Counted from the first letter of the stretch, positions 964 to 29,637 are shown. The stretch: DNA of 53,859 nucleotides from Candidatus Micrarchaeota archaeon (GCA_026396285.1 JAPLXB010000024.1:1-53859); one strand, 5' to 3'. The notes: generated by a model not told the origin, from the letters alone. Numbers and translations are program-made.

Positions 964-1155
964 GGGCTCGTAGCTCAGCCTGGTGGCCTTTTCTTTTTGG
1001 AAAAGAAAAGCTCCACAACAAGAAAAAGTGGGGCCTTCTCCGGCAATGGAAAGGGTCAGGCAATTAGAGCGCCAGTCTTATACGACGCCAAGGGACTATG
1101 TGCCCTTGGTTTCCAGGCGAACTGGTGGTCCTGGGTTCGAATCCCAGCGGGCCCA
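964..1155 (+). tRNA. tRNA-Ile(UAU) with two introns (D-loop about 985-1062; canonical 37/38 at 1083-1119)
   Basis: Acceptor stem GGGCTCG/CGGGCCC plus discriminator A; D stem GCTC/GAGC; anticodon stem CCAGT/ACTGG with loop CT-TAT-A|intron|A; T arm CTGGG-TTCGAAT-CCCAG. BHB-like pairing at both introns (CCTG/CAGG central helix for the D-loop intron). Confidence 0.85.
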
Positions 1156-1168
1156 CTCAAACGGAATC

Positions 1169-1260
1169 GGCGATGCCGAGGCATCGCCCACCTGGCGCGG
1201 AGGAACCAAGGTTCCTCCCCTTGACCCCGCTTCCTTTTAATTGCGGCTTCTTCTTTTTTT
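1169..1260 (+). terminator. Two GC hairpins followed by T-rich tracts downstream of the tRNA (candidate terminator or processing signal)
   Basis: GGCGATGC-CGAG-GCATCGCC (1169-1188), GGAGGAAC-CAAG-GTTCCTCC (1199-1218), then T tracts. Confidence 0.35.
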
Positions 1261-1262
1261 CC

Positions 1263-1544
1263 ATGAACGTTGACGTGATTGCGCGTGGAAGGATTTCTGA
1301 ACTGCTCGAGTTAGCGAAGCAGATGTGGGGCAATGACAAAAAACTTTCACGGCGCTATGTGCAGCTTGCGCGGAAAATCGCGATGAGGCACCGCATAAAA
1401 TTGGGGAACCGCTTGTTCTGCAAGAAGTGCGGCGCCGTTTTCATCCCGGGCGCGACCGTGCGCGTGCGGCAGAGCCCGCGGCAGAAAATGGTTTTGTACA
1501 CCTGCACCGAATGCGGGGCAGTCAGGAGATTCGGCCGCAGCTGA
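1263..1544 (+). CDS. rnp4: Ribonuclease P protein component 4 (Rpp21/Rpr2)
   Basis: IARGRISELLELA...SRRYVQLARKIAMRHRI...FCKKC...FIPG...YTCTECGAVRRF zinc ribbon. Start moved to ATG 1263 because the longer ORF overlaps the tRNA. Confidence 0.9.
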   Translation: MNVDVIARGRISELLELAKQMWGNDKKLSRRYVQLARKIAMRHRIKLGNRLFCKKCGAVFIPGATVRVRQSPRQKMVLYTCTECGAVRRFGRS

Positions 1545-1574
1545 CGAAAGGCGCCCGTTGGCGCCCGCTTTTTT

Positions 1575-1790
1575 TCAATGGCCTTTAGGCGGAGACATGC
1601 TCCATTCGAACGTGAGGACCGCGAGCACTGCGAGGAGCATTCCGAACTGGATGTTCCTCTCAATGAACAGCATGTATGCCGCGAGTGCTCCTGCGAGGAG
1701 GCCGGGGCTGACTGGGAACGGGGCGAACGCTAGCGGGTCACTCGTTTTCGTTGCGCCCGCTGCACCCACGGTTTGTGCTAGCTGCATCAA
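1575..1790 (-). CDS. Small hypothetical membrane protein
   Basis: 71-aa ORF with two hydrophobic segments; fills the gap, convergent with rnp4. Confidence 0.45.
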   Translation of the reverse strand: MMQLAQTVGAAGATKTSDPLAFAPFPVSPGLLAGALAAYMLFIERNIQFGMLLAVLAVLTFEWSMSPPKGH

Positions 1791-2066
1791 CCGGCATCGC
1801 CCCTTCTGTCAATTTTGAATGAGGGGCGCAGGTACGAAGTGCAAGCCGTGTGCTGGATTGCCTCCAAGGGGTTGCCTTCTTTCCTGCGCGTGTCCGTAAA
1901 AAACACAATGTTTTTTCCGGACTGCCTCGCGAGAAATGGGTTTACACGCCAATAAAAAGTTTTCGTTTTAACGGCGTTGTGGTGTGAAAAGCAAACAGGC
2001 TGTTCTTTTTTGGTAAAAAGTTGTCCAAAAACAAGTTTTTTAAACATTTGTGGCCCGTTTATTGCC

Positions 2067-2813
2067 ATGACAAAGAAAAGCATCTCAACCGCCGTGTCGG
2101 AGATTTTGGACGACATGCAGTACCTTCACCTGCCGTTCACCCGCGGCCTCGTCAACTGCTCGGGAGTCGCGAGACTCATAACCCCGCTGATTGAGGAAAG
2201 GACCGGCGCGAAGCCGGGAATGGACGCGGTGATTGTCGCGGTCAGGCGGTATGCGCGGACGCTTAAAAAAAGCGGGAACCCTACGCTGGAATCGGTGATT
2301 ATGCAGTGCAGCGCCGTGCTGCGGACCGGCCTCGCCGGCTTTCACATCAAGAACTGGCACAACAGCCACTTCATGGCCGGGCTGTCCGCGCTTTTGACGG
2401 GCGAAGTTGACTGGGATTCCGGGGAGAAGGTCTATGTTTCCCAGCGCTCCGGCGAAATGTACATCTGCTCGAGCACGAAGTTCATGCCGAAAATAATCGC
2501 GCTCGCGACCAAGCCACCGACCGAGCTGGCGCACTACCAGGAAAACCTCTCGCTCATCACGATAAACCACCCGCCTGCCGGCCATTCCACTCCCGGCGTG
2601 TTCGCGTTCTTCATCAACCTCCTCGCGCAGGCGAACATAAACGTCTACGAGATATTCTCCACCTACCGCAAGTTTTCGCTGCTCATAGAGGAGGAGAATG
2701 CGCCCAAGGCGTACGAGCTGATTAACAAGGCCATAGTTCAGAACAAGAAACTCTTCGGCCACCAAAAGCACGAGCCCGTGCCAGCGATCCAGCGCGCCTC
2801 CCCAATGTGGTGA
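2067..2813 (+). CDS. ACT-domain-containing regulator-like protein
   Basis: N-terminal GLVNCSGVARLI...AVIVAVRRY and C-terminal ACT-like TPGVFAFFINLLAQANINVYEIFSTY. TATA-like TTTTTAAA about 30 nt upstream of ATG 2067. Confidence 0.7.
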   Translation: MTKKSISTAVSEILDDMQYLHLPFTRGLVNCSGVARLITPLIEERTGAKPGMDAVIVAVRRYARTLKKSGNPTLESVIMQCSAVLRTGLAGFHIKNWHNSHFMAGLSALLTGEVDWDSGEKVYVSQRSGEMYICSSTKFMPKIIALATKPPTELAHYQENLSLITINHPPAGHSTPGVFAFFINLLAQANINVYEIFSTYRKFSLLIEEENAPKAYELINKAIVQNKKLFGHQKHEPVPAIQRASPMW

Positions 2814-2864
2814 GTGCGCAGCCCGCGACAACTGCGCTGGCGCATCCGACCCGACTGCTGCGCC

Positions 2865-3707
2865 TCATTTTCCAAGCGCTTTTTCATAGGCTTTTTTCAT
2901 TGCCAGTGCGTCTGCCTCTATGTTAGGGCTTTCTGAAATTATCGTCCCGGCATAACCGTTTTCCGCCAGGACTTCAGCAAGGGGCTTGAACGGCGGGCTC
3001 TGGGAGTCAATGGTCAAGTGGTTTTTTTCCCCACGCCCGGTGAATTTCACTCCAGTGAAGTGGGAGTGGAAGCTTTGGACAGCGCGCTTGCCCAACTGCT
3101 TTTCAAGGCTGTCAAAAATTTTCAAGTAGTCGTCTTTTGACTTTATCCAGCCCTTTCCTTCCCTGCAGTGGACGTGGGCAAAATCGATTGTAAGGTTGAC
3201 TGCGTCTGTACCGAACTCGTGGCAGAGCCGGGCGAGCTCGTCGAGGGACCCGAATTCGGCGATCCCGCCGGTGGTCTCGGGAGCAAGCACCGCATTAAGT
3301 TTTTCCACCCTGATTTTTTCAACGAGTTCGCCGAACCTTTTACTCATCTCGTTATAGGCCGTCGCCGCATCCTTTTTCCCGTAGTAGCCGGGATGGAACA
3401 CGACGCGCCCTCCGCCTGCGGCGCTCGATATCCTGGCGGTCTGGATTATCCTTTCCCCGCTTGCGCGCGCCTTTTCCGCGTCTTCGGACACCAGGTTGAC
3501 GTAATATGGGGCGTGGGCGCTCAGGCTCACGTCGGCTGCCCTGGCTTTTTCCCCGCACTGCCGCGCGAGGTCCAAGCCCATTTTCGCGCCGCGTACTAGT
3601 TCAAACTCAAAGGCCGATAACCCGAGATCATGAACACATTGGATTCCTTCAATTGAGCCGCCGTCGCAGGAGCGGGGTATTCCAGCTGTCCCGAAGCGTA
3701 TTTTCAT
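2865..3707 (-). CDS. nfo: Endonuclease IV (AP endonuclease family 2)
   Basis: IRFGTAGIP, SAHAPYYVNL, VFHPG, PETTG, IDFAH, HSHFTG, GEKNH and ISESP metal-binding motifs. Confidence 0.9.
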   Translation of the reverse strand: MKIRFGTAGIPRSCDGGSIEGIQCVHDLGLSAFEFELVRGAKMGLDLARQCGEKARAADVSLSAHAPYYVNLVSEDAEKARASGERIIQTARISSAAGGGRVVFHPGYYGKKDAATAYNEMSKRFGELVEKIRVEKLNAVLAPETTGGIAEFGSLDELARLCHEFGTDAVNLTIDFAHVHCREGKGWIKSKDDYLKIFDSLEKQLGKRAVQSFHSHFTGVKFTGRGEKNHLTIDSQSPPFKPLAEVLAENGYAGTIISESPNIEADALAMKKAYEKALGK

Positions 3708-3790
3708 AAAAGCCACTTGCACTACCAAGGACAGTGTTTTTAAATTTATTCCGCGCTTTAACACTTCTGGCAGTTAAGGGGGATTCTGGA

Positions 3791-4468
3791 ATGGTTTCCA
3801 TCAAGTACCTTGGGCACTCGTCCTTCACGATAGAAGTCAACGGCAGGGTTGTGTTGACCGACCCGTGGCTTGACCCGCGGCCGAGGAACGTGCAGCGGCT
3901 TGTTCCGCCTGCAGCGACATCCGACCAGATTCGGCGGGCGGACGTAATCCTGGTTTCCCACGAGCACTACGACCACTGCGACGCGTTTGACATAGGGACG
4001 ATAGTCAACAGGACGTTCGCGCAGGTGGTTGCGCCGGACTCGGCGCTGAAGAAGCTGGACATCCCGGAACGGAACAGGGTGCCTGCGCGCGAGGGAGACA
4101 AGTTTGAACTGATGGGCGTGAACATAGAGGTTGTCGAGGCGCGCCACCCCCAGTGCTCGCATGCGGTAGGGTATATTGTGCGGGGAGAGGGCGGCAGCGT
4201 TTACTTCGCCGGCGACACGTACCAGTTTCCAGCAATGAACAGGATAGACGTTGACGTCGCGATACTCCCGATTGGCGGGACTTATACGATGGACATGCTT
4301 TCCGCGCTCACGGCGCTCAAGCAACTGCGGGCCAGGTTCGTGGTGCCGATGCACTACAACACGCTCAAGGAAATCCGGGTGAGCCCGCAGGAGTTCGCGA
4401 GGCGCGTGAAGGAGACGACGAAAGTCGAACCGGTTGTCCTTAGCGTGGGCGAAGGGTTTTCAATCTGA
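3791..4468 (+). CDS. Metallo-beta-lactamase-fold hydrolase (UPF0173/UlaG-like)
   Basis: YLGHSSF, TDPW, SHEHYDH, YFAGDT, LPIGG, PMHYNT. Confidence 0.85.
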   Translation: MVSIKYLGHSSFTIEVNGRVVLTDPWLDPRPRNVQRLVPPAATSDQIRRADVILVSHEHYDHCDAFDIGTIVNRTFAQVVAPDSALKKLDIPERNRVPAREGDKFELMGVNIEVVEARHPQCSHAVGYIVRGEGGSVYFAGDTYQFPAMNRIDVDVAILPIGGTYTMDMLSALTALKQLRARFVVPMHYNTLKEIRVSPQEFARRVKETTKVEPVVLSVGEGFSI

Positions 4469-4502
4469 TGCTCGTTGTTTCAAATGGTTTCAGGTGGTTT
4501 TC

Positions 4503-4916
4503 GTGATTAGTGGCGGGAGAATAATCGGCGTTGAAGCAAAAAAACTTAAAGAAGGCAAAGTCGGCGGGATGGCCGTGAACATAGGAATCGAGGACGTGCG
4601 CGTCGACGGCGACAAACTCGTCATAGCCTACAGCTATGCGGTGGACTACCAGCCGGAACTGGCTACGATGTCAATCAGGGGCGAAATTTTCATGGACGAA
4701 AAGAACCGGCAGGATATTGTTGACAAGTGGAAGAAGAACAAGCAGTTCCCGCCTGAAATGGCCGAGGACATGCTTAACGCGATAACCTACGCCGCGAGCG
4801 CGGTCGGGACGCTCCTTGCGTTCGCATTGGGAATCAACGCGCCCCTTTCGCTACCGCGCGCGAGGGTGGCGCAGCCGCCCCAGGCGCCGCCTGCGCAGCA
4901 AAAGAAAGCATCCTGA
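4503..4916 (+). CDS. Conserved-looking archaeal hypothetical protein
   Basis: GTG start after a GGTGG SD-like sequence; globular beta-rich sequence with a C-terminal PLSLPR; directly follows the MBL gene. Confidence 0.6.
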   Translation: MISGGRIIGVEAKKLKEGKVGGMAVNIGIEDVRVDGDKLVIAYSYAVDYQPELATMSIRGEIFMDEKNRQDIVDKWKKNKQFPPEMAEDMLNAITYAASAVGTLLAFALGINAPLSLPRARVAQPPQAPPAQQKKAS

Positions 4917-5036
4917 TGCCGGTGCCTACTGCAACAAGCATAGCCCCTTCGTAGTAGGGGGATAAAAAAATAAATGCCCAGCGGCAACAGCCGAAGTGGC
5001 CGCGCCGCCGTGCATTCGCGAATCGTTTCCAGGTCT

Positions 5037-5336
5037 TCAGCCGAAGAGCGCGCTGAGTCCCGCGGCCGCTTCAGCTTCCTTTTCGGCCTCGCTCGGGCCC
5101 TCTTTTTTCTCCTCTTTCTTGGCTTCGCCCGCGGCAGGCGCAGCGGCAACCGGCATAGCAGCCTGCTTGATCGCCTCTTCGATGTTGACGCCTTCAAGGG
5201 CCGCGACAAGGGCCTTCACCCTCGTTTCGTCGACTTTGGCGCCAGCGCTCGAGAGGACTTTTTTCAGGTTCTCCTCGCTGATGGGCTGCTTCGTCGAGTG
5301 GAGCAGCATCGCGGCATACGTGTATTCCATCGTCAT
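5037..5336 (-). CDS. rpl12: 50S ribosomal stalk protein P1 (L12)
   Basis: [29 protein letters not shown], Ala/Glu hinge, C-terminal GLSALFG. Confidence 0.97.
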
Positions 5337-5435
5337 CTAAACCACCATCCAAATTAATTTCCATTTTTTGAACTTTTTTCAGAGCCGTTCCCGGAAAAAA
5401 CGAAGGGGCGAAAATTTTTGCTTTTCCTGCTTCCT

Positions 5436-6260
5436 TTACTGTTGGCCGCCTTCAGGTGCCGGGGGAGCCGGCGCGCCCTCGGTAGGCGTAGCGGTTTGTT
5501 CGCCGAGCTTGGTTTTTTCGGAAATCGCCATCGCTTCCCGGTACGCTTTTCCGACAAGGAGCGGGATCGCCTCTTTTTCGTAGAAGCCGGCGCTGACTGC
5601 AAGGTTTAGCGCCGCCAGGTGCGCTTGGGATATTTCCTTGAACACCTCGGCATCGTCTACTGCAAGGACGTCCGGAAGGTAAACAGTGCCTTTTTCCCAT
5701 ATCGCGGTCACCGCAAGCCCGATTTCCATCGGCTCTATCCCGAGTTTCGTGAGCGCCCTGGCGACGGGCTCGGCTATTGCCTCGCCTTTTTTAGCGACTA
5801 AGCAGTCCTTTACAATCACGACCTTCGGCCCCTGGATTTTCGCTTCTATCTTCGCCTGCTTTAGTTCGCTCAGCACCGGGCCGGGCGGCAGGTTGGTTTC
5901 GCCTGCCGGGACAATGAGGTCCATCGGGGCGATTGAGCCCGGTTTCGCAGGGGCCTTGCTCTTGTTCTGCGAAATCAGCTTGTACAATTTGAACGGGCTT
6001 AGGTCGGTGAGTATGAGCGCGGTCGCGCCCTGGAAATGGCTTTCAAGCCCCTTGAGCTCGGGCCTCGCCTCTCCGATTGCTTTTGTGAAAAGCGTGGTCC
6101 TGGCGACGACTACTTCCGCCTTTCCACGGAGCTTCTTTTTCATCGCGTTGAAGTGCCGCGAAGGCAGGTTCTGGAGCGTTGCCACCGCTACGACCGGGTG
6201 GCGCTTGAGCGCCTCGCCGATTTCCTTGACCGCCTGTTTCTTTTCGCCGCGTGTGACCAA
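5436..6260 (-). CDS. rpl10: 50S ribosomal protein uL10/P0
   Basis: APAKPG...IVPAGETNLPPGPVLSEL...LTKLGIEPMEIGL; sits between rpl1 and rpl12; TTG start. Confidence 0.95.
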   Translation of the reverse strand: MVTRGEKKQAVKEIGEALKRHPVVAVATLQNLPSRHFNAMKKKLRGKAEVVVARTTLFTKAIGEARPELKGLESHFQGATALILTDLSPFKLYKLISQNKSKAPAKPGSIAPMDLIVPAGETNLPPGPVLSELKQAKIEAKIQGPKVVIVKDCLVAKKGEAIAEPVARALTKLGIEPMEIGLAVTAIWEKGTVYLPDVLAVDDAEVFKEISQAHLAALNLAVSAGFYEKEAIPLLVGKAYREAMAISEKTKLGEQTATPTEGAPAPPAPEGGQQ

Positions 6261-6893
6261 TTACAACAACCTCGCGGGCTTTCCCATCGTCGTCTTCACG
6301 TAAACGCTGTAAAAATTGTGTTCAGAAATCTTCTTCTCGACAGCCTCGAGGACGGCGGAGATGTTTTCAACCAGCTCCTCCTCCTTCATTGTCTCGGTTC
6401 CGACCGGGCAGTGGACGCTAGGCAGGAATTTTCCCCTGCTCCTGACCGTTACCGTGCGTTTTATTGAATTCACGAGGCCGGCGAGGTCCGCCCCGGGCAT
6501 TATGGGCTTGGGCAGTTTTCCGCGGCCTCCGAGCACTTGCCCGAGCTGTTTTCCCACGACCGGCATAAGCTGGGGGGAGGCGAGGAGCGCGTATCCGAGG
6601 AGTTCACCCTGTTTTTTCTTGTCAGAAGCGTAAGCCGGGATTTCGGCGCCCGATATCACGAGGTCGGCGTGCTTTTTCGCATCCATTGCAAGCTGGCCGT
6701 CTGCGAAGACTGCGACGCGTTTGTTCCTGCCCGCGTACGGGAGGACGACGTCGAGGCCGAGGCGGTTTTCCGCCTTCTTAAAGTCCACGCCGGTGAAGTT
6801 GACCGCCAGGTCCACGGACTGGGTGAATTTCCTTTTCCCCTTGTCCTCTAGGCACGCGTGGACTGTTTGCTCTATCTTCTTCTTTTCAATCAA
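6261..6893 (-). CDS. rpl1: 50S ribosomal protein uL1
   Basis: KRKFTQSVDLAVNF, LGQVLGGRGKLP, VYVKTTMGKP; TTG start after a GGAGGGG SD. Confidence 0.95.
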   Translation of the reverse strand: MIEKKKIEQTVHACLEDKGKRKFTQSVDLAVNFTGVDFKKAENRLGLDVVLPYAGRNKRVAVFADGQLAMDAKKHADLVISGAEIPAYASDKKKQGELLGYALLASPQLMPVVGKQLGQVLGGRGKLPKPIMPGADLAGLVNSIKRTVTVRSRGKFLPSVHCPVGTETMKEEELVENISAVLEAVEKKISEHNFYSVYVKTTMGKPARLL

Positions 6894-7001
6894 TTGTCCG
6901 TCCCCTCCTGAACGCCTACCCGGGCGCTGGCGACCAGCGCTAGAGCAGTTCTTCAGTGCATGCGGGAAAAACAGCGAAGAGTTTTGGGACAACAGCCTAT
7001 T

Positions 7002-7499
7002 TTAAGCTTTTTCTCCAGCTTGTTTTTTCTTCCATTCCCGCCATTTTTCAAAAACCTTCCGCACTTCCGGGGCCTTTTTCCGTGCAATGGCCTGCATCCT
7101 TTCGTCAGCCGGAATTTCCTTGAACACCGGCCAATAAGTGAACTGGTTCATGTGGCTAACTTTTAGAGGAGGAATCTTGAGGGCGTAAAGCAGGTGGTAA
7201 ACGTTTTTTGCCGAAAAGAACTCGGCGGTTTCGGGCGAGTACCAGTGCTTTTCCTCGAGCTGAAAGCGGTGGAACAAGTCCTGTATTTTTTTAATGGTCT
7301 CGGGCCGCAGTTCGCCAACGTTCTTTCGATAAGTTTTGAGCCCTTTTTCCCACGGCGTTGATTTTTTTAATTCAAACAATTCGCCCTGCCCGTGCATTGA
7401 AACGGCGGGAACCCGTTTTTTTGGCGCACTTTCCTTTTGCGGTCCGGTTTGTTTGCGCCCGAATTTCCTTGATGGGAACAGTTCTCCTTGCCTGGCCAT
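7002..7499 (-). CDS. Basic orphan hypothetical protein inserted in the ribosomal protein cluster
   Basis: 165-aa Lys/Arg-rich ORF with a GGT SD-like sequence; fills the gap between rpl11 and rpl1. Confidence 0.65.
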   Translation of the reverse strand: MARQGELFPSRKFGRKQTGPQKESAPKKRVPAVSMHGQGELFELKKSTPWEKGLKTYRKNVGELRPETIKKIQDLFHRFQLEEKHWYSPETAEFFSAKNVYHLLYALKIPPLKVSHMNQFTYWPVFKEIPADERMQAIARKKAPEVRKVFEKWREWKKKQAGEKA

Positions 7500-7547
7500 G
7501 GCTACCTATCGCTTTTGGTGAATAAAAAACAGCCCCACCGCGGGGGT

Positions 7548-8033
7548 TCATTCGGCCTTGAGTTCGCCGCTTTCAACGAGCTTCATGGCTTCCTTGGCTT
7601 CCTTTCCCTCGACGGTCGCGCCCATGCTCTGGCAGGTCCCGATTACTTCCTTCACCAGCGCCTTAAGGGTTTTTGAAAGCGAGCCGGGCTCCTTCTTTCG
7701 CGCAATCTCGATCACTTGCTGGAATGAAAGGTTCCCAATGGGCTTCTTTCCCTTCGCCCCGGCTTCCTCCTTCACCGGCTCGGTTATTCCGAGCTCTTTT
7801 TTCACCAGCGCGCTAACCGGCGGCGTGCCGACTTCTATTTCGAACTGTTTAGTGTCCTTGTCCACGGTCACCTTGACCGGGACCTGCATTCCCGCGAATG
7901 ACTTCGTCTTCTCGTTGATTGCGGCAATGATCTGGCCTATGTTTACTCCGGTCGGCGCGAGCGATGGGCCGAGCGGCGGCGCAGGAGTCGCCTTTCCTCC
8001 TTCAACGAGAGCCGGGATAGTAATCTTAGCCAT
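7548..8033 (-). CDS. rpl11: 50S ribosomal protein uL11
   Basis: VEGGKATPAPPLGPSL, FAGMQVPVKV, EVGTPPVSALVKKELG, KEVIGTCQSMG. Confidence 0.97.
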   Translation of the reverse strand: MAKITIPALVEGGKATPAPPLGPSLAPTGVNIGQIIAAINEKTKSFAGMQVPVKVTVDKDTKQFEIEVGTPPVSALVKKELGITEPVKEEAGAKGKKPIGNLSFQQVIEIARKKEPGSLSKTLKALVKEVIGTCQSMGATVEGKEAKEAMKLVESGELKAE

Positions 8034-8044
8034 TGAGCCATCAC

Positions 8045-8506
8045 CTACTGGGGAATCACTTTTATAGTGTTGAGTTTTATCGTGACCGGAATCGGGACAG
8101 CGACTTCAATCAATTCAACGGTAAGCTCTTCCTTGTCCTTGTCTATCCTCACGACCTTCGCCTTCTCCCCCTTGAACGCGCCCGCCACGATTTCCACGAG
8201 GTCCCCGCGGTTTATCACGATTTCAACGGGCTTGCTTTCCAGTAGTTCCGCGATGTCGCCGATGGCCATGCTGCTGTGGAGGGCGCCCTTCACGTGCGGG
8301 ACGTTCGTAATGAGTTTGCGTGCCTCCAGTTCGTCCCCGCTTTCAACGATGAGGTATCCCTTGAGCCGCGGCGACACGATGAGCGCCTTGAGCGCGTTGA
8401 ACTGGCGCTGCTCGGCCGCCTTGGACTTGTCCTTCTTGATTTTTTCATGCAACAGGTCCGCCACTATGCTTTCCTGGCCGGCAGTCACTCGGTAAGCGAA
8501 CAGCAT
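8045..8506 (-). CDS. spt5: Transcription elongation factor Spt5 (NusG)
   Basis: RVTAGQE, LKGYLIVE, KOW motif GDLVEIVAGAFKGEKAKV, VAVPIPVT. Confidence 0.95.
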   Translation of the reverse strand: MLFAYRVTAGQESIVADLLHEKIKKDKSKAAEQRQFNALKALIVSPRLKGYLIVESGDELEARKLITNVPHVKGALHSSMAIGDIAELLESKPVEIVINRGDLVEIVAGAFKGEKAKVVRIDKDKEELTVELIEVAVPIPVTIKLNTIKVIPQ

Positions 8507-8517
8507 TTCAAACCACT

Positions 8518-18837: not shown

Positions 18838-18856
18838 GCCCGCGAAGCGCGGCACC

Positions 18857-19714: not shown

Positions 19715-19735
19715 CGCCGGCCGCAAAACACCGTT

Positions 19736-22236: not shown

Positions 22237-22260
22237 GCAAATCCCCTCGCCGCCTCAGCG

Positions 22261-22494
22261 TCATTTGTTTTCAACCATTTCAATCGCCTTGAACGGGCAC
22301 ACCTGCGCGCATACGCCGCACCCCTTGCAATAATCCAAATCCGGTTCGGCCTTTTTAGACCCGATTATCATGCAGTGGTCGGGGCAGAATCCCTCGCAGG
22401 TGCCGCACCGCGTGCACTTTTCAGTCACGTTGGGCCACTGGCTCCGCCACGAACCCGTCTTCACCGTCGTCCCGGGCTTCACCACCAATTCCAT
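22261..22494 (-). CDS. porD: Pyruvate:ferredoxin oxidoreductase delta subunit
   Basis: KTGSWRSQWP, CTRCGTCEGFCP, DLDYCKGCGVCAQVCP. Confidence 0.93.
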   Translation of the reverse strand: MELVVKPGTTVKTGSWRSQWPNVTEKCTRCGTCEGFCPDHCMIIGSKKAEPDLDYCKGCGVCAQVCPFKAIEMVENK

Positions 22495-22585
22495 GAACAA
22501 AAAAAGCGCGCAGTGTTTTAAAAACCGTGGCCGGAACCCGGGGCGGACGGCGCATGACGAAAACGCGTCCTGTTGGTGCCGCCGG

Positions 22586-23197
22586 TTACGGCCCGATTGT
22601 CGGGAGATAAAACAAGGGCAGCAGCGCGAGCGCCAGGAAGTGGAAAAGCGCGAAATACGTTGCCGACGGAACCGCTGAAACAACCGCGTTGAAGAAACTC
22701 AGGCCATGCGCTTCCCTCAACGCGAGCGACGCCAGGTAAACACCGTACAGGTACGCCAGCAGCGCGAGCGCGATGCCGGCCAAGCCGAGGGGCGGGATGC
22801 TGATGAAAACCATCGCAAGCGCGCCAGCGGGCGCGTAAGTCGCCGCGACGAGGTTGAACTGCGTCCAGTAACCCCTTCTCCCGCCCAAGAGCCACGCGAC
22901 AACCCACGCCAGCGCGTTTGCAAAGAGGGCGCCGATGAGGGCGATGGGCAGCGTGAACGAGATGGTTGCAAGCAGAATTGTCTTCGCGGTCGTGAACACG
23001 AACGCGTCAGTCAGCGCATGCTGGACGAGCGCGCGCCACGCTATCCACATCATCCACAGGACCGCGTTTGCCGCGATTACGCCGAAGGCAAGCTGGATTG
23101 AGCCCTCTGCAGGCGAAGCGGTTTCACCCAGCGCCGCAAGCGTCTCCGAGGGCTTGAGAACTATGCCTTTCCAGAGCCTTTGCGGCGGTTTCATCAA
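22586..23197 (-). CDS. Yip1-family-like membrane protein
   Basis: LKPSETL N-terminal motif, LLGGRRGY, AYAP-like motif, LREAHGLS; about 5 TM helices. Confidence 0.65.
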   Translation of the reverse strand: MMKPPQRLWKGIVLKPSETLAALGETASPAEGSIQLAFGVIAANAVLWMMWIAWRALVQHALTDAFVFTTAKTILLATISFTLPIALIGALFANALAWVVAWLLGGRRGYWTQFNLVAATYAPAGALAMVFISIPPLGLAGIALALLAYLYGVYLASLALREAHGLSFFNAVVSAVPSATYFALFHFLALALLPLFYLPTIGP

Positions 23198-23287
23198 ACC
23201 GAGAAGGCGGCATGGTTAAAAAAACCGTTTCAATGCCGCCGCTGGCGACGGGGAAGGTTAAAAAAACTCGCCCGGCTCTTTTTGTTG

Positions 23288-24739
23288 ATGAACGAGAACG
23301 AGCGCCTGCTCCTGGAGTCGCTGTCAAAGGAGTTCGAGAGCGCGGACCAGGTTGCGGCAAAATCGGGTTTGGCGAAGAGCGCCCTCATGAGCGCTGCCGC
23401 GGCCTTGGAGGCAGAGGGACTGGTTGAAGTGAAAAAGAAGGAGCGGAAGCTCGTTTCCCTCACTCCCGAGGGCCGGAGTTATTTTGAGAAAGGCACGCCC
23501 GAACGCAGGCTGTGCGCCGCCGTCAGCGCAGGAAAGGAACTGGAGTTTGGGACGGCGGTGAAGAAAGCCGGGCTTGCCGGGCACGAGGCGCCGGTTGCGC
23601 TCCAATGGGCCGTGAAAAACGGTTGGGCGGTAGTGAAAAAAGATGGCGGGAAGACCGTTGTTTCCTGTTCGTCCCTCAAGGAAGGGGAGGTGGAGGCGGC
23701 GCTCAAGAAAATCGGGGCAAAGCAAGTTGGCGCCGAGGCTGTGGAAAAGCACGTGCTTGAAATTCTTGAGAAAAGGAAACTGGTTGAGTTCAAGGAAGAG
23801 AAAGAGATTTCGCTGAGGGCTGCTGCGAAGGGCGCGGCCGCGCTTGCGCGGCAGGAGAACGTGGTTTCCCAGCTGACTCCGGAAATGCTGAAGACCGGCG
23901 CGTGGAAGGGCAGGAAATTCAAGGAATACGACTTGAAGACCGTCGTTGCGCCCGTGCAGGCCGGCGGAAAGCATTTTTACAAGGAGTTCATCGGCCGCAT
24001 CAAGGAGCATCTAGTGAGCATGGGTTTCGAGGAAGTCCAGGGGCCGTTGGTTGAGACTGAGTTCAGGAACATGGACGTGCTGTTCATGGCCCAGGACCAC
24101 CCGGCGAGGGAAATCCACGACATTTTCATGCTCGAGGAACCGTCCAAGGGAAGCCTGCCGGACAAGCTGGTTGAGCGCGTGAAGTGGGCGCACGAAGTCG
24201 GCGGGAAAGGGTCAAAGGGCTGGCGGTACAAGTGGGATCCGGCTGTTGCGGCGCGGCTCGTGCTCAGGTCGCAGACCACTGCAGTGAGCGGCAGGAGGCT
24301 GGCGCAGGGCGTTAAGCCGCCGTTCCGCATGTTCTGCATAGGAAAGTGCTTCAGGCCGGATGAAATCGATTGGAAGCATTTCATTGAATTCTACCAACTG
24401 GAAGGAATCGTGGTCGACGACGGGATTAGTTTCAGGGAACTCCTCGGCTACCTGAAGACGTTTGCGACCAAGGTCTTCGGCGCCAAGGAAGTGGGTTTCG
24501 TGCCATCGTATTATCCTTTCACCGAACCGAGCGTAGACCTCGTGGGCAAAATCGGCGACAAGTGGGTGGAACTCGGCGGAGCGGGGATGTTCAGGCCCGA
24601 GATGCTTGAGGCGCTTAACGTCGGCGTGCCGGTGCTTGCATGGGGCCTCGGGCTGGACCGGTTCGCGATGCGCACGCTCGGGGTAAAGGACATCAGGGAC
24701 TTGTCGGGCAGCGACATGGAATTGATTAGGCGTAAATGA
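23288..24739 (+). CDS. pheS: Phenylalanyl-tRNA synthetase alpha subunit
   Basis: QDHPAREIHD, LRSQTT, FRPDEIDWKHFIEFYQLEG, YPFTEPS, AWGLGLDR; archaeal winged-helix N-terminus. Confidence 0.96.
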   Translation: MNENERLLLESLSKEFESADQVAAKSGLAKSALMSAAAALEAEGLVEVKKKERKLVSLTPEGRSYFEKGTPERRLCAAVSAGKELEFGTAVKKAGLAGHEAPVALQWAVKNGWAVVKKDGGKTVVSCSSLKEGEVEAALKKIGAKQVGAEAVEKHVLEILEKRKLVEFKEEKEISLRAAAKGAAALARQENVVSQLTPEMLKTGAWKGRKFKEYDLKTVVAPVQAGGKHFYKEFIGRIKEHLVSMGFEEVQGPLVETEFRNMDVLFMAQDHPAREIHDIFMLEEPSKGSLPDKLVERVKWAHEVGGKGSKGWRYKWDPAVAARLVLRSQTTAVSGRRLAQGVKPPFRMFCIGKCFRPDEIDWKHFIEFYQLEGIVVDDGISFRELLGYLKTFATKVFGAKEVGFVPSYYPFTEPSVDLVGKIGDKWVELGGAGMFRPEMLEALNVGVPVLAWGLGLDRFAMRTLGVKDIRDLSGSDMELIRRK

Positions 24740-24745
24740 AGGATT

Positions 24746-26380
24746 TTGGCGGTTTGCATGGTTTCGGTGTCATTCAACAGAAGCGCGTTCGAGCGCCTCG
24801 TCGGGAGCGAACTGTCGCAGGCGCAGCTCAAAGAACTCCTCCCGCGCGCGAAGTGCGGGGTGGACGACGTCAACGAGCGCGAGGTGCTTTGCGAAGTGAC
24901 TGGCGACAGGCCCGACCTATTGTGCACCGAGGGCGCCGCAAGGGCGGTGAAGGGGATTTTGGGGAAGGAAAAGGGGCTGCCAAAGCTGGTTGTTTCTCCG
25001 GCGAAGACGTTCGTGAAAGTGCACGAGAACGTCGCCGCTGTCCGGCCCTTCATTTTCTGCGCGTACATTGACGGAGTGAAAATAACCGGGGACGAAATCG
25101 CGGAACTGATGCAGGTGCAGGAAAAGCTCCACCTCACCCACGGCCGGCGGAGGAGAAAGGTGGCAATCGGAATCCACGACGCCGCGAAAGTCTCGGCGCC
25201 GTTCTCCTACAAGGCCGTGAAAGGGAATGAGATGGCGTTCATTCCATTGGGCAAGGAGGAGGAAATGACGTTCAAGGATGTTTTGGAGAAGCACGAGAAG
25301 GGAAGGGACTACGCGTTCGTGTTCGAAGGCGTGGACAAGTATCCCGCGGTGTTGGACGCTAAGGACCGGGTGGTGTCGTTCCCGCCGATCATAAACGCGG
25401 CGATGACCACGGTCACCGAATCCACCAAGGCGTTTTTCCTGGAAATAACCGGAACCGATTTCGAGGCCTGCAACGCGGCGGCGAACATAATCTGCCAGAA
25501 CTACTCTGACAAGGGCGCGAAAATAACCGCCGTCGAAATACGCTATCCCGACAAGAAAGTGGTCTCGCCCGCCAGCGAACCGGAAGTTATGACGATAGGC
25601 GTAGGCGAGGCAAACAAGCTGCTTGGCACTTCGTTGAAGGCGGGCGAGATGGCCGAGGCGTTGAAAAAGCAGAGGCTCGGCGCAAGGGTCGAGGGCGACT
25701 TCGTTGCCTGTGAAATACCGCGCTACCGCACCGACTTCCTTCACCCGGTTGACTTAGTAGAGGAAATCGCGCTAGGCATCGGCTACAACGAACTGGGAAT
25801 CAAGGAGCCGACTGTGTTTACTAAGGGCTCGCGCACCGAACTAAGCGTTGAAACCGATTCGCTGAGGGACGCCATGGCCGCCGCCGGCTACGCGGAAGCG
25901 GCGACGAACGTGCTCTGCGGCGAAGAGGCGCTGAAAGCCAGGGCCGGGAAACCAATCCGCGTCAAGAACCCGGTAAGCAGCGAATACTCCTTCGTGCGCA
26001 ATTCAATAGTCCCGGTCCTGCTCGCGGTGCTTTCAAAGAACACGCGCCACCCGTATCCGCAGAAACTTTTCGAGGTGGGCGAGGTGGTTGAAAGGCGCGA
26101 GGGGTCGGAAACGGGGACTGTCACGAAAATCAATTTATGCGCGTTGAGCGCCCACAAGGACGCGGGCCTCTCCGAAATAGCTTCCGTGCTCGCGGGCGTG
26201 CTAAAGGGCGCGGAATTGAAGAAACTGCCATCCGACCAGTTCATCCCCGGCCGGTGCGCGCAAGTGGTTGTTGGGAAAAAAGTCGTTGGCGTAGTGGGCG
26301 AGCTGCACCCGGAAATCCTTGAAGCTTTTGGAATCGAGATGCCCGTGGCCGCCTTCGAAGTTACTGTGGGCGAAATCTGA
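24746..26380 (+). CDS. pheT: Phenylalanyl-tRNA synthetase beta subunit
   Basis: DRPDLL, QEKLH, SFPPIIN, YRTDFLHPVDLVEEIA, GELHPEIL. Start may be ATG 24758. Confidence 0.95.
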   Translation: MAVCMVSVSFNRSAFERLVGSELSQAQLKELLPRAKCGVDDVNEREVLCEVTGDRPDLLCTEGAARAVKGILGKEKGLPKLVVSPAKTFVKVHENVAAVRPFIFCAYIDGVKITGDEIAELMQVQEKLHLTHGRRRRKVAIGIHDAAKVSAPFSYKAVKGNEMAFIPLGKEEEMTFKDVLEKHEKGRDYAFVFEGVDKYPAVLDAKDRVVSFPPIINAAMTTVTESTKAFFLEITGTDFEACNAAANIICQNYSDKGAKITAVEIRYPDKKVVSPASEPEVMTIGVGEANKLLGTSLKAGEMAEALKKQRLGARVEGDFVACEIPRYRTDFLHPVDLVEEIALGIGYNELGIKEPTVFTKGSRTELSVETDSLRDAMAAAGYAEAATNVLCGEEALKARAGKPIRVKNPVSSEYSFVRNSIVPVLLAVLSKNTRHPYPQKLFEVGEVVERREGSETGTVTKINLCALSAHKDAGLSEIASVLAGVLKGAELKKLPSDQFIPGRCAQVVVGKKVVGVVGELHPEILEAFGIEMPVAAFEVTVGEI

Positions 26381-26530
26381 ACCGCGGCTGGAACGCGCGC
26401 GGCGATTCAGTAAAAACGACAAGCAGTGTCTGAAAAGAGACTGTGCGCGGGCCGGTCAAAGCGTTCAAATCGAAGAAATCCGGCGCTAGGCGCCTTGGAA
26501 ACGCGTTTTGGCCGCTTCCGCCTGCCAACG

Positions 26531-26550
26531 AAAAGTATATATATTAAAAA
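26531..26550 (+). promoter_or_regulatory. BRE/TATA-like element
   Basis: AAAAG-TATATATATTAAAAA in a GC-rich background, 25-40 nt upstream of a long hairpin. Confidence 0.45.
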
Positions 26551-26574
26551 TTAGATTGAAGTATTCACGAATTC

Positions 26575-26682
26575 TGGCAAAAGGAGTGGACGCGAGAGGG
26601 AGAGGCTTATCTTATTTTGAACGGATTGCCTCCTTGGGGTTGCCTTCCTTCTCTCGTTCCACCATTTTTTACTCCCTTGCCA
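26575..26682. ncRNA. Candidate structured RNA (long imperfect hairpin)
   Basis: TGGCAA..GGAGT / ACTCC.TTGCCA outer stem; GTGGA..CGAGAG GGAGAGGC / GCCTTCC..CTCTCG.TCCAC inner stem. Confidence 0.35.
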
Positions 26683-26872
26683 TTTTCAGTGTTTTTTCCG
26701 GCAATCACCTCCTTGGGGTATTAACGGAGTCATGAACAAACTCCTTTATATATTTTCCGCCTCCTACGACCTTATTTTTCAAAACGGAGCGACGGGAAGC
26801 CTTATTTTTGAAAACAAAGCGATTTCTAGGTTTTTAAAAGTAGGCCTTTTTTCCCGTTTTGTTTCCCGGTCG

Positions 26873-27010
26873 GCGTTTTTTGCGAAAGCCTCAACAAAAA
26901 CGCTTCATCCCTCAAGCCCTTGCCTTGTCTGAGCAAACCGGGTTGAGGGTCATGCCGTACACTGGCGCAAAAGAACAGGTGTGCACGAACGCCAGTTGCT
27001 GCATGGTTAC
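26873..27010 (-). ncRNA. Candidate small structured RNA (three consecutive stem-loops)
   Basis: Stems CATGC/GCATG with ACTGGCG/CGCCAGT, CCCTCAA/TTGAGGG, and GCGTTTTT(T)G/CAAAAACGC; minus-strand TTTTTATA box at 27035-27042. Confidence 0.35.
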
Positions 27011-27096
27011 CGATACAGTTTAGCAATCAACGTGTATAAAAAGTTTTGCAAACGCAGCGAAAGCCCGCCAGCTGCCGGCAGCGCCCCGCCGAATTC

Positions 27097-27474
27097 CTAT
27101 TGGCCCGCGCTTTCGAGCATCTTGATGCGCGCTTCGACTTCAAGGAGGGCAGTGTGGATTTTCATCAAAACATCCCTATACGTGGCAGCATCAATCTCGC
27201 CGTTGATCAGTTTTTTCTTCGCCTCGTCACGCATGTGCCCGAGCTTGATTTTTTCCTCGCGCGCATCTTCCAGCGAAACCCGTTTCCTTTCCCGCACTTT
27301 TTTGATGTACTCTTCAGTCTCTCTCTCCTCGGCAGTGGACTCGTAGGCGACGTCCACGCGGTTGCTTGTGAAAAGCGCCCGGATGTAGCCGCGGGAGTGG
27401 AGGAGGTAAAACAGCGCCAGCACCAGCAGGACGAGGAGCGAGTCAGTGAAGAAGTCAGTGTACGAGTAGGGCAT
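27097..27474 (-). CDS. Membrane-anchored coiled-coil protein with a SHOCT-like C-terminus
   Basis: N-terminal TM; KLINGEIDAATYRD motif. Confidence 0.65.
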   Translation of the reverse strand: MPYSYTDFFTDSLLVLLVLALFYLLHSRGYIRALFTSNRVDVAYESTAEERETEEYIKKVRERKRVSLEDAREEKIKLGHMRDEAKKKLINGEIDAATYRDVLMKIHTALLEVEARIKMLESAGQ

Positions 27475-27575
27475 CTTTTCACCAAACCATTCAATCCAGG
27501 GTGTTTGAAAAACCTTTTCCTCGCCCGCCGCACCGCCGAAAACCGTTTTTAACCGGGAACGCTCCAGATAAGCTC

Positions 27576-28409
27576 ATGGAAGAGGAATTGGAAAAAGTGA
27601 GGAAAGCCCTTGAGGAAGGAAAGGCGATTTCAAGTGTTTTCCCGCGCGAGCGACTGCCAGAACTGAAAAAAGCCCGGCTGCAACTGCTTAAATCGATGAA
27701 CGCATCAGAGCAGAAGCCTCCGGAGAATTTCATAGTCCCCATGCATCCGGAAGTGCAGGAGGCAATTTCCTATGCCTACCGGAACGGCTTGGGTATCGAA
27801 TTCCCGGAAGCAAAACCACGCGCACAGTTCATCGCCAACCGCGTACTTGAAAATAACGCCTTTTTGCGCGTCCAGACGCTGGTGTGGAAACGGCTCGCAG
27901 GAAAAATCAAGGGAACCTGGGTATTCCCGGCAGCGGGCCTTGACTCAATGTTTTTCGGCGGCAAGAAAGTGATAACCGTCGGGCCCTACCACGGAAAAGA
28001 ACCGTTGCATGTCAGAAAAAGGGCTGAAAACCTGTTGCCAGGAGAACTGGATGCGTTGAAGAAGCGAGCGGGCTTGGAAAAACAGACTGTGCTCGTGTTG
28101 AAGGGCTTGCAGAACATCCTGCCGCCAAAGGAACTGGAGGCGTTCATCGAACGTTTCAGGCCCGCGCACGTGATAGTTTTCGGCAGCGCCGCCCACGGGA
28201 TTAAGGAAGCAAAAGCGGTTCCCCGGATATCGCCGGGCCTGGTGTCGATGCTTGGAAAACGCCACCGCGACGCGACCGGCGACTATTTTTCCCCACACGA
28301 ACTGCGCCAACTGGACGAAATCCATTTGCTGGGCCGTGACCACTTCGGGTGGGGAGGCGGACACTTTCCCGCCACGCAAGTCAAGGTATTCGAGCGCAGG
28401 CGCGAATAG
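27576..28409 (+). CDS. Basic orphan hypothetical protein
   Basis: 277-aa ORF; TTTTTAA box about 25 nt upstream of ATG 27576; no family recognised. Confidence 0.6.
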   Translation: MEEELEKVRKALEEGKAISSVFPRERLPELKKARLQLLKSMNASEQKPPENFIVPMHPEVQEAISYAYRNGLGIEFPEAKPRAQFIANRVLENNAFLRVQTLVWKRLAGKIKGTWVFPAAGLDSMFFGGKKVITVGPYHGKEPLHVRKRAENLLPGELDALKKRAGLEKQTVLVLKGLQNILPPKELEAFIERFRPAHVIVFGSAAHGIKEAKAVPRISPGLVSMLGKRHRDATGDYFSPHELRQLDEIHLLGRDHFGWGGGHFPATQVKVFERRRE

Positions 28410-28499
28410 GAGTACGCTCATTTTTTGGAGGCTGCGCCGAACAGCTCCGCGGCCGCGCGCCAGCGCGGCGGCGAACAAGGCAAAGCGCCCGGCACGGGT

Positions 28500-29474
28500 T
28501 TACGAGAGTATTTCGGCCGCGACCGCCAAGAGGTAAAGCAGCACAAGCACGGCGCCCTCTGTTTTTCCCAGCCTGCCCCTGAGGAGGAATATGAAAGAAA
28601 CCACCGTGACCGCCAAGAGCGCCGGCGCGGTTACCGTCGCGAAGCCGTTCGCCATCACTATCGGCTTCATTATTCCGAGCAACCCCAGCGTGACGAACAG
28701 GGTGAATATGTTGGAGCCTATGGACTGCGATACCGCGAGCTCGTCAAACCCCTTGCGGGTCGCCTGGAGCGCCACAGCGAGGTTGGGCAGGCTCGTGCCC
28801 AGCGCCCCGAGCGTGACGCCGATGAGCGCTTCGGAAACCCCGCTGATTCTCGCCAGGTCTATGAGGCCGCGGGCGAAGAACTCCGACCCAAGAAGCAGGA
28901 GGGCGCCGCCGATGACGAATATGTATATTCCGCTTCGGATGACTAGCGGGTCGCGGAGTTTTCCAAAAAGCACGAGGGTTTTGGAAATGCTCTTTATTTC
29001 CTTCTTGCGCTCCTTTTCCGCGAGGAGCTTTTCTTGCGTGTAGACGTTCGCCGCGTAAGGGATGAAGAGCAGGAGGAAGACGAGGCCGTCACTCCTGCTT
29101 ATGAGCGAGTCGTCGAACGCGAGGAGGGAAACGACGATCGTGGCAACAAGCATGAATATTCCATCCCTAGTGATTAAGTGGCGCGGAATCCGTATCGGCC
29201 GGATTATCGCCACGAGCCCGAGTATCAGCCCGAGGTTGACGATGACGGAGCCGAGCGCGACGCCGGCGCTGACCTGCTCGTGGCCCTTGGCAAAAGCGAG
29301 GGTTGACACGAGCAGTTCCGGGAGGCTGAGCAGTATGGAGACCAATATGAGGCCGACTGCAAGGTTGGTCGTGCCGAACCGGTTGGCGACGTGGACGGAC
29401 GAGTCCGTGACCCACTCCGCACCTTTGAGCAGAAGGTACGCGCCGGCAACCAGCGTGCATATTTCAAGCAGCAT
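28500..29474 (-). CDS. Calcium/sodium antiporter (YrbG/CaCA family)
   Basis: Two alpha repeats SLPELLVS...GSVIVN and GTSLPNLAV...GSNIF; about 10 TM helices. Confidence 0.9.
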   Translation of the reverse strand: MLLEICTLVAGAYLLLKGAEWVTDSSVHVANRFGTTNLAVGLILVSILLSLPELLVSTLAFAKGHEQVSAGVALGSVIVNLGLILGLVAIIRPIRIPRHLITRDGIFMLVATIVVSLLAFDDSLISRSDGLVFLLLFIPYAANVYTQEKLLAEKERKKEIKSISKTLVLFGKLRDPLVIRSGIYIFVIGGALLLLGSEFFARGLIDLARISGVSEALIGVTLGALGTSLPNLAVALQATRKGFDELAVSQSIGSNIFTLFVTLGLLGIMKPIVMANGFATVTAPALLAVTVVSFIFLLRGRLGKTEGAVLVLLYLLAVAAEILS

Positions 29475-29499
29475 CTAACCGCATCCCGTTTGTTGACAG

Positions 29500-29637
29500 T
29501 GCAGGGGGAGAGATTTGAACTCTCGAAGGGTCTAAACCCAAGGGATTTCAAAAACGGTTTCTTTTGGTGAAGCTTTTCTTTCCCAAAAGAAAAGGTTCTT
29601 TAAGTCCCTCCCATTTTCCAGGCTCTGGCACCCCTGC
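29500..29637 (-). tRNA. tRNA-Leu(UAA) with a 52-nt anticodon-loop intron (29547-29598)
   Basis: Acceptor stem GCAGGGG/CCCCTGC plus A73; anticodon stem AGGGA/TCCCT with CT-TAA-A; long variable arm GGGT-TTAG-ACCC; T arm GAGAG-TTCAAAT-CTCTC; spliced length 86 nt. Confidence 0.85.

Follow-up and report, generated by a model that had tools for sequence, protein, structure and literature searches.

Two tRNA genes with a common intronic hairpin

The window analysed here is a stretch of 53,859 nucleotides of archaeal DNA (GCA_026396285.1 JAPLXB010000024.1:1-53859) that constitutes contig C45 of G000, a Micrarchaeota-like metagenome-assembled genome (MAG) of 1.03 Mb in 56 contigs, 91% complete and with 57.6% G+C. 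Two interrupted tRNA genes in the window, for tRNA-Ile(TAT) and tRNA-Leu(TAA), carry the same short hairpin inside introns that lie at different tRNA positions. This hairpin, which we call the cassette, belongs to a structured family that in G000 is concentrated in tRNA and rRNA genes and is probably mobile. In what follows, G numbers denote genomes, L numbers fetched DNA stretches and C numbers contigs of G000; R1 is a covariance model that we built from 43 aligned copies of the cassette.

We located the tRNAs of the window by hand reading, by ARAGORN with introns allowed, and by an Infernal tRNA search of the genome. With default settings, ARAGORN and the Rfam gathering thresholds detected no tRNA at all across the 54 kb, and with introns allowed ARAGORN reported a tRNA at 29499-29637 with a miscalled anticodon. 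The features are as follows.

964-1155, plus strand: tRNA-Ile(TAT) gene with two introns; D-, anticodon, T- and acceptor arms read by hand, Infernal tRNA match at C45:1053-1155
964-983, 1064-1082 and 1120-1155, plus strand: exons of tRNA-Ile, read by hand
984-1063, plus strand: D-loop intron of tRNA-Ile, about 80 nt, with the cassette at its 5′ end; boundaries read via the bulge-helix-bulge (BHB) rule
984-1021, plus strand: cassette copy 1, diverged, TGGCC...GCTCCACAACAA; R1 43.7 bits, E = 3.7e-8; nhmmer E = 6.4e-10
1083-1119, plus strand: the other tRNA-Ile intron, which follows position 37 in the anticodon loop, read by hand; cassette-free, no R1 match
29500-29637, minus strand: tRNA-Leu(TAA) gene, interrupted once, at the canonical position 37/38, from the sequence and an alignment of orthologues
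29547-29598, minus strand: anticodon-loop intron of tRNA-Leu, 52 nt, whose first base is the G of GAACC; exons fixed by the intronless orthologue in G028
29562-29598, minus strand: cassette copy 2, near consensus, GAACC-UUUUCUUUU-GGG-AAAGAAAA-GCUUC-ACCAAAA; R1 58.6 bits, E = 4.5e-12

An earlier note on this DNA had described a hairpin at 987-1025 (plus) and 29595-29558 (minus) that is identical at 34 of 39 positions, and blastn-short returned the same pair (39 columns, 4 mismatches, 1 gap). Both copies are AT-rich against the G+C-rich background and read in the sense direction of their tRNA genes, as the note had stated; they have the hairpin in common and no common adaptor. The note had placed the element 2-3 nt inside the intron, in agreement with a conserved unit that begins 3 nt upstream, such that the first base of (G/T)RRCC is the first intron nucleotide. 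For tRNA-Ile, it had the D-loop intron right and its extent wrong, because 987-1025 covers only the first half of the roughly 80-nt intron. The tRNA-Leu intron likewise extends further than the note had it, over 29598-29547. A degenerate 25-nt hairpin pattern matches the window at these two sites only and matched none of 100 dinucleotide-preserving shuffles of the window (mean 0.00, maximum 0), so the resemblance is significant against composition-preserving controls, a check that the note had proposed.

Anatomy of the cassette

Upon wider comparison, the 39-mer turned out to be one subtype of a larger family, in which GAACC and a U-run lead into a variable palindromic top, 2 to about 60 nt long, and the 3′ side consists of an A-run, GCUUC and the tail ACCAAAA. 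Seeding nhmmer with nine copies recovered about 22 loci in G000, and a 16-mer from the 3′ half, AAAAGCTTCACCAAAA, revealed a second subtype, whose hairpin tops are G+C-rich. In the alignment of 43 sequences, the foot of the hairpin pairs GAAcCUUUU with AAAAGcUUC, and a C·C mismatch interrupts it in 41 of the 43 sequences. Because 30 of these sequences had been retrieved by an exact 25-nt pattern, the invariance of the foot is partly built in. Its conservation is supported independently by lineage variants that keep the pairing through compensatory change: GGACC/GCUCC in G085, CGACC/GCUCG in a Halolamina genome, GAAAC/GUUUC and GAACC/GGUUC in a Methanocaldococcus genome, and GAAGC/GCUUC in Komagataeibacter. 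The upper stem covaries as well. Two-sided pair changes occupy 48 cells of the alignment versus 15.6 in shuffles; none of 500 shuffles reached 48, and slid-register controls also stayed below it.

G·U pairs show no strand bias (33/1890 on the sense strand, 42/1958 on the antisense strand). This symmetry does not tell RNA from DNA, and it neither supports nor excludes a role at the RNA level. In folding energy, the antisense strand is about 3 kcal/mol more stable than the sense strand, a difference that we tentatively attribute to the C·C mismatch, which reads as G·G on the antisense strand. We rejected pairing of the tail with the U-run plus GG as a general fold; it appeared only in the minimum-energy folds of some copies and is by eye not general. 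Rfam 15 contained no match to the cassette in the window (gathering thresholds), at five loci from other lineages (E ≤ 1) or at five loci of G000 (E ≤ 0.1).

A separate likeness concerns Un1Cas12f1 (Cas14a1), which we take to come from an uncultivated DPANN archaeon; the resemblance could be a relic, a relative or a coincidence. Its guide-RNA scaffold contains ACCGCTTCACCAAAAGC, that is, the conserved halves of the cassette minus the hairpin (bioRxiv 10.1101/2022.10.20.513037).

In G000, the cassette is concentrated in tRNA and rRNA genes

A genome-wide search and tabulation of copies, as suggested in the earlier note, yielded 31 distinct R1 loci in G000 at E<0.01 (E-values down to 1e-12) and three weaker ones besides. 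Twenty of the 31 lie in tRNA introns and are spread over 18 tRNA loci: five in the D-loop, including that of the window's tRNA-Ile, eight in or at the anticodon loop, including that of tRNA-Leu, and seven in the T-arm. Two further copies interrupt the 23S rRNA gene and four sit in tRNA 3′ trailers, within a few bases behind the tRNA 3′ end. The remaining five are in untranslated regions (UTRs) or intergenic DNA; among them are one copy antisense to the gene next to it, a tandem pair behind a promoter, and one copy flanked by convergent genes. Every one of the 26 copies linked to tRNA or rRNA is in the sense orientation. Because 26 of the 31 copies thus sit inside tRNA or rRNA genes or immediately behind them, and the 44 tRNA loci (merged from ARAGORN, Infernal and hand calls) occupy only about 0.6% of the genome, the cassette in G000 is strongly enriched in these genes and is not a ubiquitous intergenic repeat without intron preference, the outcome that the note had named as a refutation.

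Judged by locus length, about 37 of the 44 tRNA loci exceed 100 bp and are hence apparently interrupted; 20 of the 44 contain at least one cassette when weaker matches are included. Several tRNA genes have two or three introns, for example tRNA-Arg(CCT) at C24:8915-9165. The T-loop introns of tRNA-Ala(CGC) on C54 and of tRNA-Arg(CCT) at C24:9087 have not only the hairpin but also a 3′ adaptor, GAAAACGTTGCGAAA, in common. Elsewhere on C24 (10880-11075), diverged direct repeats of about 48 nt flank an antisense cassette on both sides.

The 23S rRNA gene (C35:12308-15956, minus strand; L131 3309-6957) runs about 660 nt beyond the Rfam model and holds cassette introns at C35:15154 and C35:14198. 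One of the two has a textbook BHB layout, GTCT aa^G AACC ... GGTT GGAC ag^ (^ marks the splice sites), and the 23S site of C35:14198 is occupied by a cassette in another archaeon (L100), too. On the same contig, an archaeal RNase P RNA match at C35:10408-10787 (L131 1409-1788) scores 64.7 bits against a gathering threshold of 84 and is about 90 nt longer than its model; the RNase P RNA gene of G000 may be interrupted as well.

In clean cases, the cassette edge coincides with the predicted splice site

The position of the cassette within its introns reveals how it relates to the BHB motif. In clean cases, four exon nucleotides that form one strand of helix H are followed by two bulge bases, the splice site, G, AACC and the rest of the cassette; on the 3′ side, GGUU is followed by the H′ strand complementary to the exon, two bases and the second splice site. 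The first intron base is then the G of GAACC, and AACC and GGUU form the predicted inner helix h′. The first base of the intron and the inner helix thus come from the cassette. The stretch that pairs with the exon is target-specific. In an example from G085, GTCG aa^G AACC ... GGTT CGAC aa^TGG, removal restores the D-loop GTCGAATGG, which is also present in an intronless D-arm of G000 (C21). The strict form, H(4 bp)-NN^G-AACC...GGUU-H′(4 bp)-NN^, is seen in 16 modules out of 172, copies outside introns being counted in this total, versus 0.58% of 3440 shuffled controls. Strict cases include the G000 copies on C21, C22, C35 and C36, the one on C35 being in 23S rRNA.

The two introns of the window differ in how they fit this motif. 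By hand, we could assign to the D-loop intron of tRNA-Ile a predicted BHB with H = GCCT/AGGC and h′ = GGCC/GGUC, and excising 984-1063 leaves a standard D-arm; the tRNA-Leu intron is predicted to adopt a relaxed form, UUAAA/UUUGA. More generally, removal of the introns restores standard D-, anticodon and T-arms from the hand-read exons, and intronless orthologues fix the exon sequences of tRNA-Leu(UAA) and tRNA-Ala(CGC). G000 encodes a fused, single-chain EndA splicing endonuclease that comprises an N-domain and two catalytic-type domains.

Gain or loss within the phylum

Scanning 151 sampled genomes of the phylum, with the top 44 candidates scored per genome so that counts are lower bounds, gave R1 matches at E ≤ 0.001 in 53, the unpublished genome G062 among them, and none in the other 98. 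The richest genomes have at least 29 (G000) and at least 26 (G085) copies, followed by others with at least 14, 14, 12 and 10. Within genus g38, the counts are 26, 2, 0 and 0. The distribution is thus patchy and bursty. In G085, 18 of the 20 fetched copies lie in tRNA genes, all in sense orientation, and some of its introns hold several cassettes, nested or in tandem; the flanks of an intergenic copy in this genome are not syntenic in its congeners.

Comparison of orthologous tRNAs, likewise proposed in the earlier note, uncovered filled and empty sites. In G047 and G048, tRNA-Ala(CGC) has no intron; its T-loop bears a cassette intron in G085 and, at that same site, a different intron in G111. 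tRNA-Leu(UAA) carries a cassette intron at 37/38 in G000 and G018; the site is empty in G028, which belongs to the genus of G018, and also in G011, G003 and G007, and it is occupied by a short unrelated intron in G004. In G024, G014, G020 and G025, the cassette introns of this tRNA are clearly diverged. Diverged copies beside near-consensus ones at orthologous sites are to be expected of insertions of different ages and less so of selection acting site by site. The note's suggestion of a mobile element or intron that moves between tRNA genes gains support from the 31 loci and from the variety of intron positions that the cassette occupies, across 18 tRNA loci and in the 23S rRNA gene, and further from the occurrence in 53 of 151 genomes, the steep copy-number differences in g38 and the filled and empty orthologues.

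In one relative (L102), Rfam finds a group I intron (53.4 bits) at 3158-3431, inside the 23S rRNA gene, and a cassette stands at 846-883, directly behind the spacer tRNA.

The cassette beyond the phylum

The exact pattern (25 specified bases) occurs in at least 115 stretches of one-genome-per-species contigs, and reversed-pattern controls are near zero in 31 genomes. Its archaeal sources include Woesearchaeota, Micrarchaeota, Nanoarchaeota, Parvarchaeota, Iainarchaeum, Aenigmatarchaeota and Altiarchaeota. Further archaeal sources are Thermoplasmata, Methanomethylicus, Bathyarchaeia, Thermoproteota, Methanosarcinales, Methanocaldococcus, Halolamina and Halarchaeum, and a few bacteria have it as well. 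Inspected by eye, the DPANN copies among the matches listed are mostly in tRNA introns, those of Bathyarchaeia, Methanomethylicia and Thermoproteota lie 1-5 nt behind a tRNA 3′ end, and the haloarchaeal ones sit behind stop codons. The concentration in introns seen in G000 does not extend to all lineages; in others, the family is mostly found beside tRNA genes or in intergenic DNA.

Some of the tRNA-flanking copies lie next to integrases or their remnants. In L087, a tRNA and a cassette are followed by a tyrosine integrase gene; in L018 and L103, only a short, sub-threshold remnant of an integrase N-terminal (SAM-like) domain follows. The tRNA 3′ end is repeated 2.3 kb downstream in L103 and 0.9 kb downstream in L053, and in L053 a diverged cassette stands behind the second 3′-end repeat. 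These layouts thus indicate that tRNA-targeting integrative elements carry the cassette beside their attachment site, and such elements are a plausible vehicle for its passage between lineages.

Outside archaea, Komagataeibacter diospyri (G033) has 204 matches to the 16-mer at up to two mismatches, as against 3 for the reversed control. Here the motif is part of an intergenic element of about 110 bp (L135-L154), present in more than 200 copies, that, unlike the archaeal cassette, has outer inverted repeats, AAGTTTTTGG ... CCAAAAACTT. The element contains two hairpins, the second of which reads GAAGCTTTTT-GA-AAAAAGCTTC and is followed by ACCAAAAACTT; the 16-mer is what it has in common with the archaeal cassette. 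IMG/VR contributed four stretches from three contigs. One of these contigs (35.5 kb; L157/L158) has seven intergenic copies, two tandem pairs among them, each with a different, G+C-rich top. It encodes a fused eukaryote-type topoisomerase II, C2H2 zinc fingers and DUF5832, a gene content suggestive of a giant virus related to the nucleocytoplasmic large DNA viruses (NCLDV).

Several arrangements stand apart from these patterns. In Methanocaldococcus sp. 16A (L195-L201), a variant GAAAC...GTTTCATCAAAA heads a longer repeat that continues with the hairpin CGGATGCATTGC...GCAATGCC and then further conserved sequence. Tandem arrays, in which part of a tRNA or another flank of 20-50 nt is repeated along with the cassette, occur in L008/L074, L005/L040, L030, L031, L052, L076, L120 and L123. 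In L095, L097, L006, L007 and L112, the cassette abuts the 5′ end of a tRNA in the opposite orientation; whether it adjoins the 5′ or the 3′ end, it borders the tRNA with its GAACC end. In the low-G+C Woesearchaeota L081 and L098, the exact motif lies in frame within putative K/E-rich repeats that read ENLLEKASPK.

A probably mobile cassette within predicted BHB introns

We favor the interpretation, with a probability of roughly 0.6, that the cassette is a short, structured, non-autonomous mobile element, one that seeds BHB introns or resides in them and that is tolerated since it is spliced out. It would multiply and move on an evolutionary time scale, and in this Micrarchaeota-like genome it would persist chiefly in the genes for tRNA and 23S rRNA, since inside them it would belong to a BHB intron and be excised by the host. 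The host splicing endonuclease and a ligase would take the cassette-bearing intron out of the RNA: AACC and a downstream GGUU would form h′, and a short target-specific stretch would pair with the last exon bases to form the central 4-bp helix. Insertion of DNA, copying between tRNA genes and an RNA route are candidate modes of copying, and tRNA-targeting integrative elements may spread the cassette between lineages. The family itself, its structure, positions and orientation, its bursty distribution and its gain or loss at orthologous tRNAs are direct observations; that the fused EndA of G000 removes the cassette, and that the cassette is selfish rather than useful, are probable extensions of them.

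A number of observations weigh against this interpretation. A functional RNA would likewise fit the complete bias towards the sense orientation and the conservation of tail and mismatch. Only 16 of the 172 modules have a strict BHB, and many introns are relaxed. Because each target has its own exon-pairing stretch, simple cut-and-paste of one fixed sequence leaves the splicing of a newborn insertion unexplained. No clean target-site duplication is definable in the archaeal copies. A comparison of contigs from four DNA runs at C24:8000-20000, a region with five copies, showed no insertion polymorphism; it showed short-sided joints and contig breaks only and no clean joint across a cassette. Finally, we detected no Y1 transposase (PF01797), TnpB domain (PF07282) or RVT_1 reverse transcriptase in G000, a 91% complete MAG in 56 contigs, and hence identified no copying machinery there; repeats in this MAG may have stayed unassembled.

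The same observations can be arranged in other ways. Chance likeness of low-complexity, A/T-rich palindromes would account for a motif that is A/T-rich and partly palindromic and for the few matches in K/E-rich coding repeats of low-G+C genomes (L081, L098). We give this idea practically no credence and regard it as refuted by the window shuffles, the reversed-pattern controls, the compensatory stem changes and the R1 E-values. A more substantial alternative is that the cassette is a functional RNA module kept by selection, serving as a binding platform for a host protein, such as a factor for splicing, processing or the binding of tRNA ends, or released with its intron, possibly as a circle, to act as a small RNA. 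The uniform sense orientation of the tRNA- and rRNA-linked copies in G000 and of the 18 tRNA copies in G085 argues for such a module, as do the start of the intron exactly at the G of GAACC, the conservation of tail and mismatch across phyla while the stem changes by compensation, and the likeness, in our own reading, of stem plus ACCA to a tRNA acceptor end. It is harder to reconcile with the divergence of the tRNA-Leu(UAA) copies in four genomes and the intronless state of other relatives, with the 98 genomes that have no match, with the G·U symmetry, and with copies that run antisense to genes, lie between convergent ones or occur in bacteria and the giant-virus-like contig; on balance we judge it unlikely. 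Equally unlikely in our estimate is a self-propagating intron seed, a minihelix RNA resembling a tRNA acceptor that host enzymes would re-insert and that would then be fixed in DNA. Here the 7-bp foot (G1-C72 ... with its C·C mismatch) would be followed directly by ACCA and an A-run, and the excised intron, beginning with the G of GAACC, would re-enter the loops and ends of other structured RNAs, through reversal of the EndA/RtcB reaction or through copying of an RNA intermediate. If true, such a seed would be the first concrete route for the birth of archaeal BHB introns, and the element would be carried between phyla, and even between domains, by viruses and by integrative elements that target tRNA genes.

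Two further alternatives invoke processes known from other systems. Whole introns might be copied between tRNA genes only, as in Thermoproteales, by recombination at conserved D- and T-arm sequences, with the hairpin being the body of one successful intron lineage. There is precedent for this (Fujishima et al. 2010, as cited in PMC4090602); sites in T- and D-loops, with their conserved exon sequence, dominate, the sense orientation would be kept, and the common hairpin and adaptor of the tRNA-Ala(CGC) and tRNA-Arg(CCT) introns indicate that such copying does occur. It cannot account for the 11 of 31 copies outside tRNA bodies (in 23S rRNA, trailers, UTRs and intergenic DNA), and the different adaptors and positions of the two window copies and the non-intronic life of the same module in other phyla also speak against it, so that as a complete explanation it is quite improbable. 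Less probable still is a single-stranded DNA hairpin, akin to repetitive extragenic palindromes (REP), palindrome-associated transposable elements (PATE) or transposable elements of the miniature inverted-repeat type (MITE), that a transposase of the HUH/Y1 (IS200/IS605-type) or another kind, supplied by the host, a virus or an unassembled repeat, mobilises in trans. The anatomy would suit it, namely a conserved foot with mismatch, a variable top and a conserved single-stranded 3′ tail, as would the spread across domains, from archaea to Komagataeibacter and the NCLDV-like contig, and the absence of G·U strand bias. Besides G000, however, Y1_Tnp is missing from G085 (26 copies), G019 (14) and G020 (10), and TnpB is missing from G019 too, an assembly of only 8 contigs. 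R1 found no module at eight TnpB loci of three genomes that bear it elsewhere, and the archaeal copies have neither terminal inverted repeats nor a clean target duplication. We therefore reject a link to IS200/IS605 for now, given the absence of Y1_Tnp from these four genomes and of TnpB from G000 and G019, and the eight TnpB loci that lack the cassette.

Relation to known systems

The nearest described phenomenon to the spread of the cassette is the transposition of tRNA introns in Thermoproteales, as far as it is set out in PMC4090602 (citing Fujishima et al. 2010): the introns there have BHB junctions, their gains post-date speciation, and their mechanism is given as unknown. Both cases involve near-identical introns at different positions of non-orthologous tRNAs within one genome, here with 20 copies in 18 tRNA loci. 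Unlike the Thermoproteales case, the host here is a Micrarchaeota-like DPANN archaeon, and the common part is a structured cassette with foot, mismatch and tail that is not confined to tRNA introns and recurs across archaeal phyla and beyond. A second point of reference is ARMAN-2 (Ca. Micrarchaeum acidiphilum), from the same phylum-level group as G000. According to the available portion of its description (PMC3239211), it has highly disrupted tRNA genes with many non-canonical introns, including in the T-arm at 53/54 and 59/60, and an epsilon2 splicing endonuclease that cleaves strict and relaxed motifs; that portion mentions no common intron sequence or cassette. It gives 56% of tRNAs as interrupted, compared with about 37 of 44 loci in G000 by the length count, and the epsilon2 enzyme compares with an EndA that we read in G000 only as a fused multi-domain chain.

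Like REP, PATE and MITE elements, the cassette is short, multi-copy, palindromic and non-coding, with bursty, lineage-specific occurrence and some tandem copies. Unlike them, it is without terminal inverted repeats, a defined target duplication or a linked transposase, and its main niche is inside essential RNA genes, from which it is (predictedly) removed as an intron. Identity as a MITE was rejected: the ends of the archaeal cassette are not inverted repeats beyond the hairpin, the flank repeats are at most suggestive, and G000 has no transposase detected. Archaeal tRNA introns, such as that of tRNA-Trp, can also carry box C/D guide RNAs, a cargo that is released by BHB splicing. The cassette differs from these guides in that it also occurs outside introns and has, by eye, neither C nor D boxes. 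We rejected both a box C/D guide, on that ground, and a promoter, as the tRNA promoters are of the TTTAAA type and lie upstream.

In the searchable literature, which does not cover supplementary intron tables, the 14-nt strings AAGCTTCACCAAAA, AAGCUUCACCAAAA and TTTTGGTGAAGCTT were absent, and we found no description of the cassette. Its structure, the way it fits the splice site, its occurrence outside introns and its range across phyla are thus apparently undescribed.

Implications for the origin of archaeal tRNA introns

That the signature turns up beside integrases that target tRNA genes, and also in bacteria and a giant-virus-like contig, suggests horizontal spread or a universal host factor that reads the signature. 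Interrupted tRNA genes explain why standard tRNA finders fail on genomes such as G000. The origin of archaeal tRNA introns is an acknowledged open question, and the abstract of a 2026 preprint on Asgard archaea still treats the arrival of introns as such. The cassette offers a concrete and traceable vehicle for it, with a searchable signature, recent bursts (26 copies versus 0 within one genus), filled and empty orthologous sites and a precise relation to the splice motif. With it, intron gain becomes directly testable in DPANN archaea.

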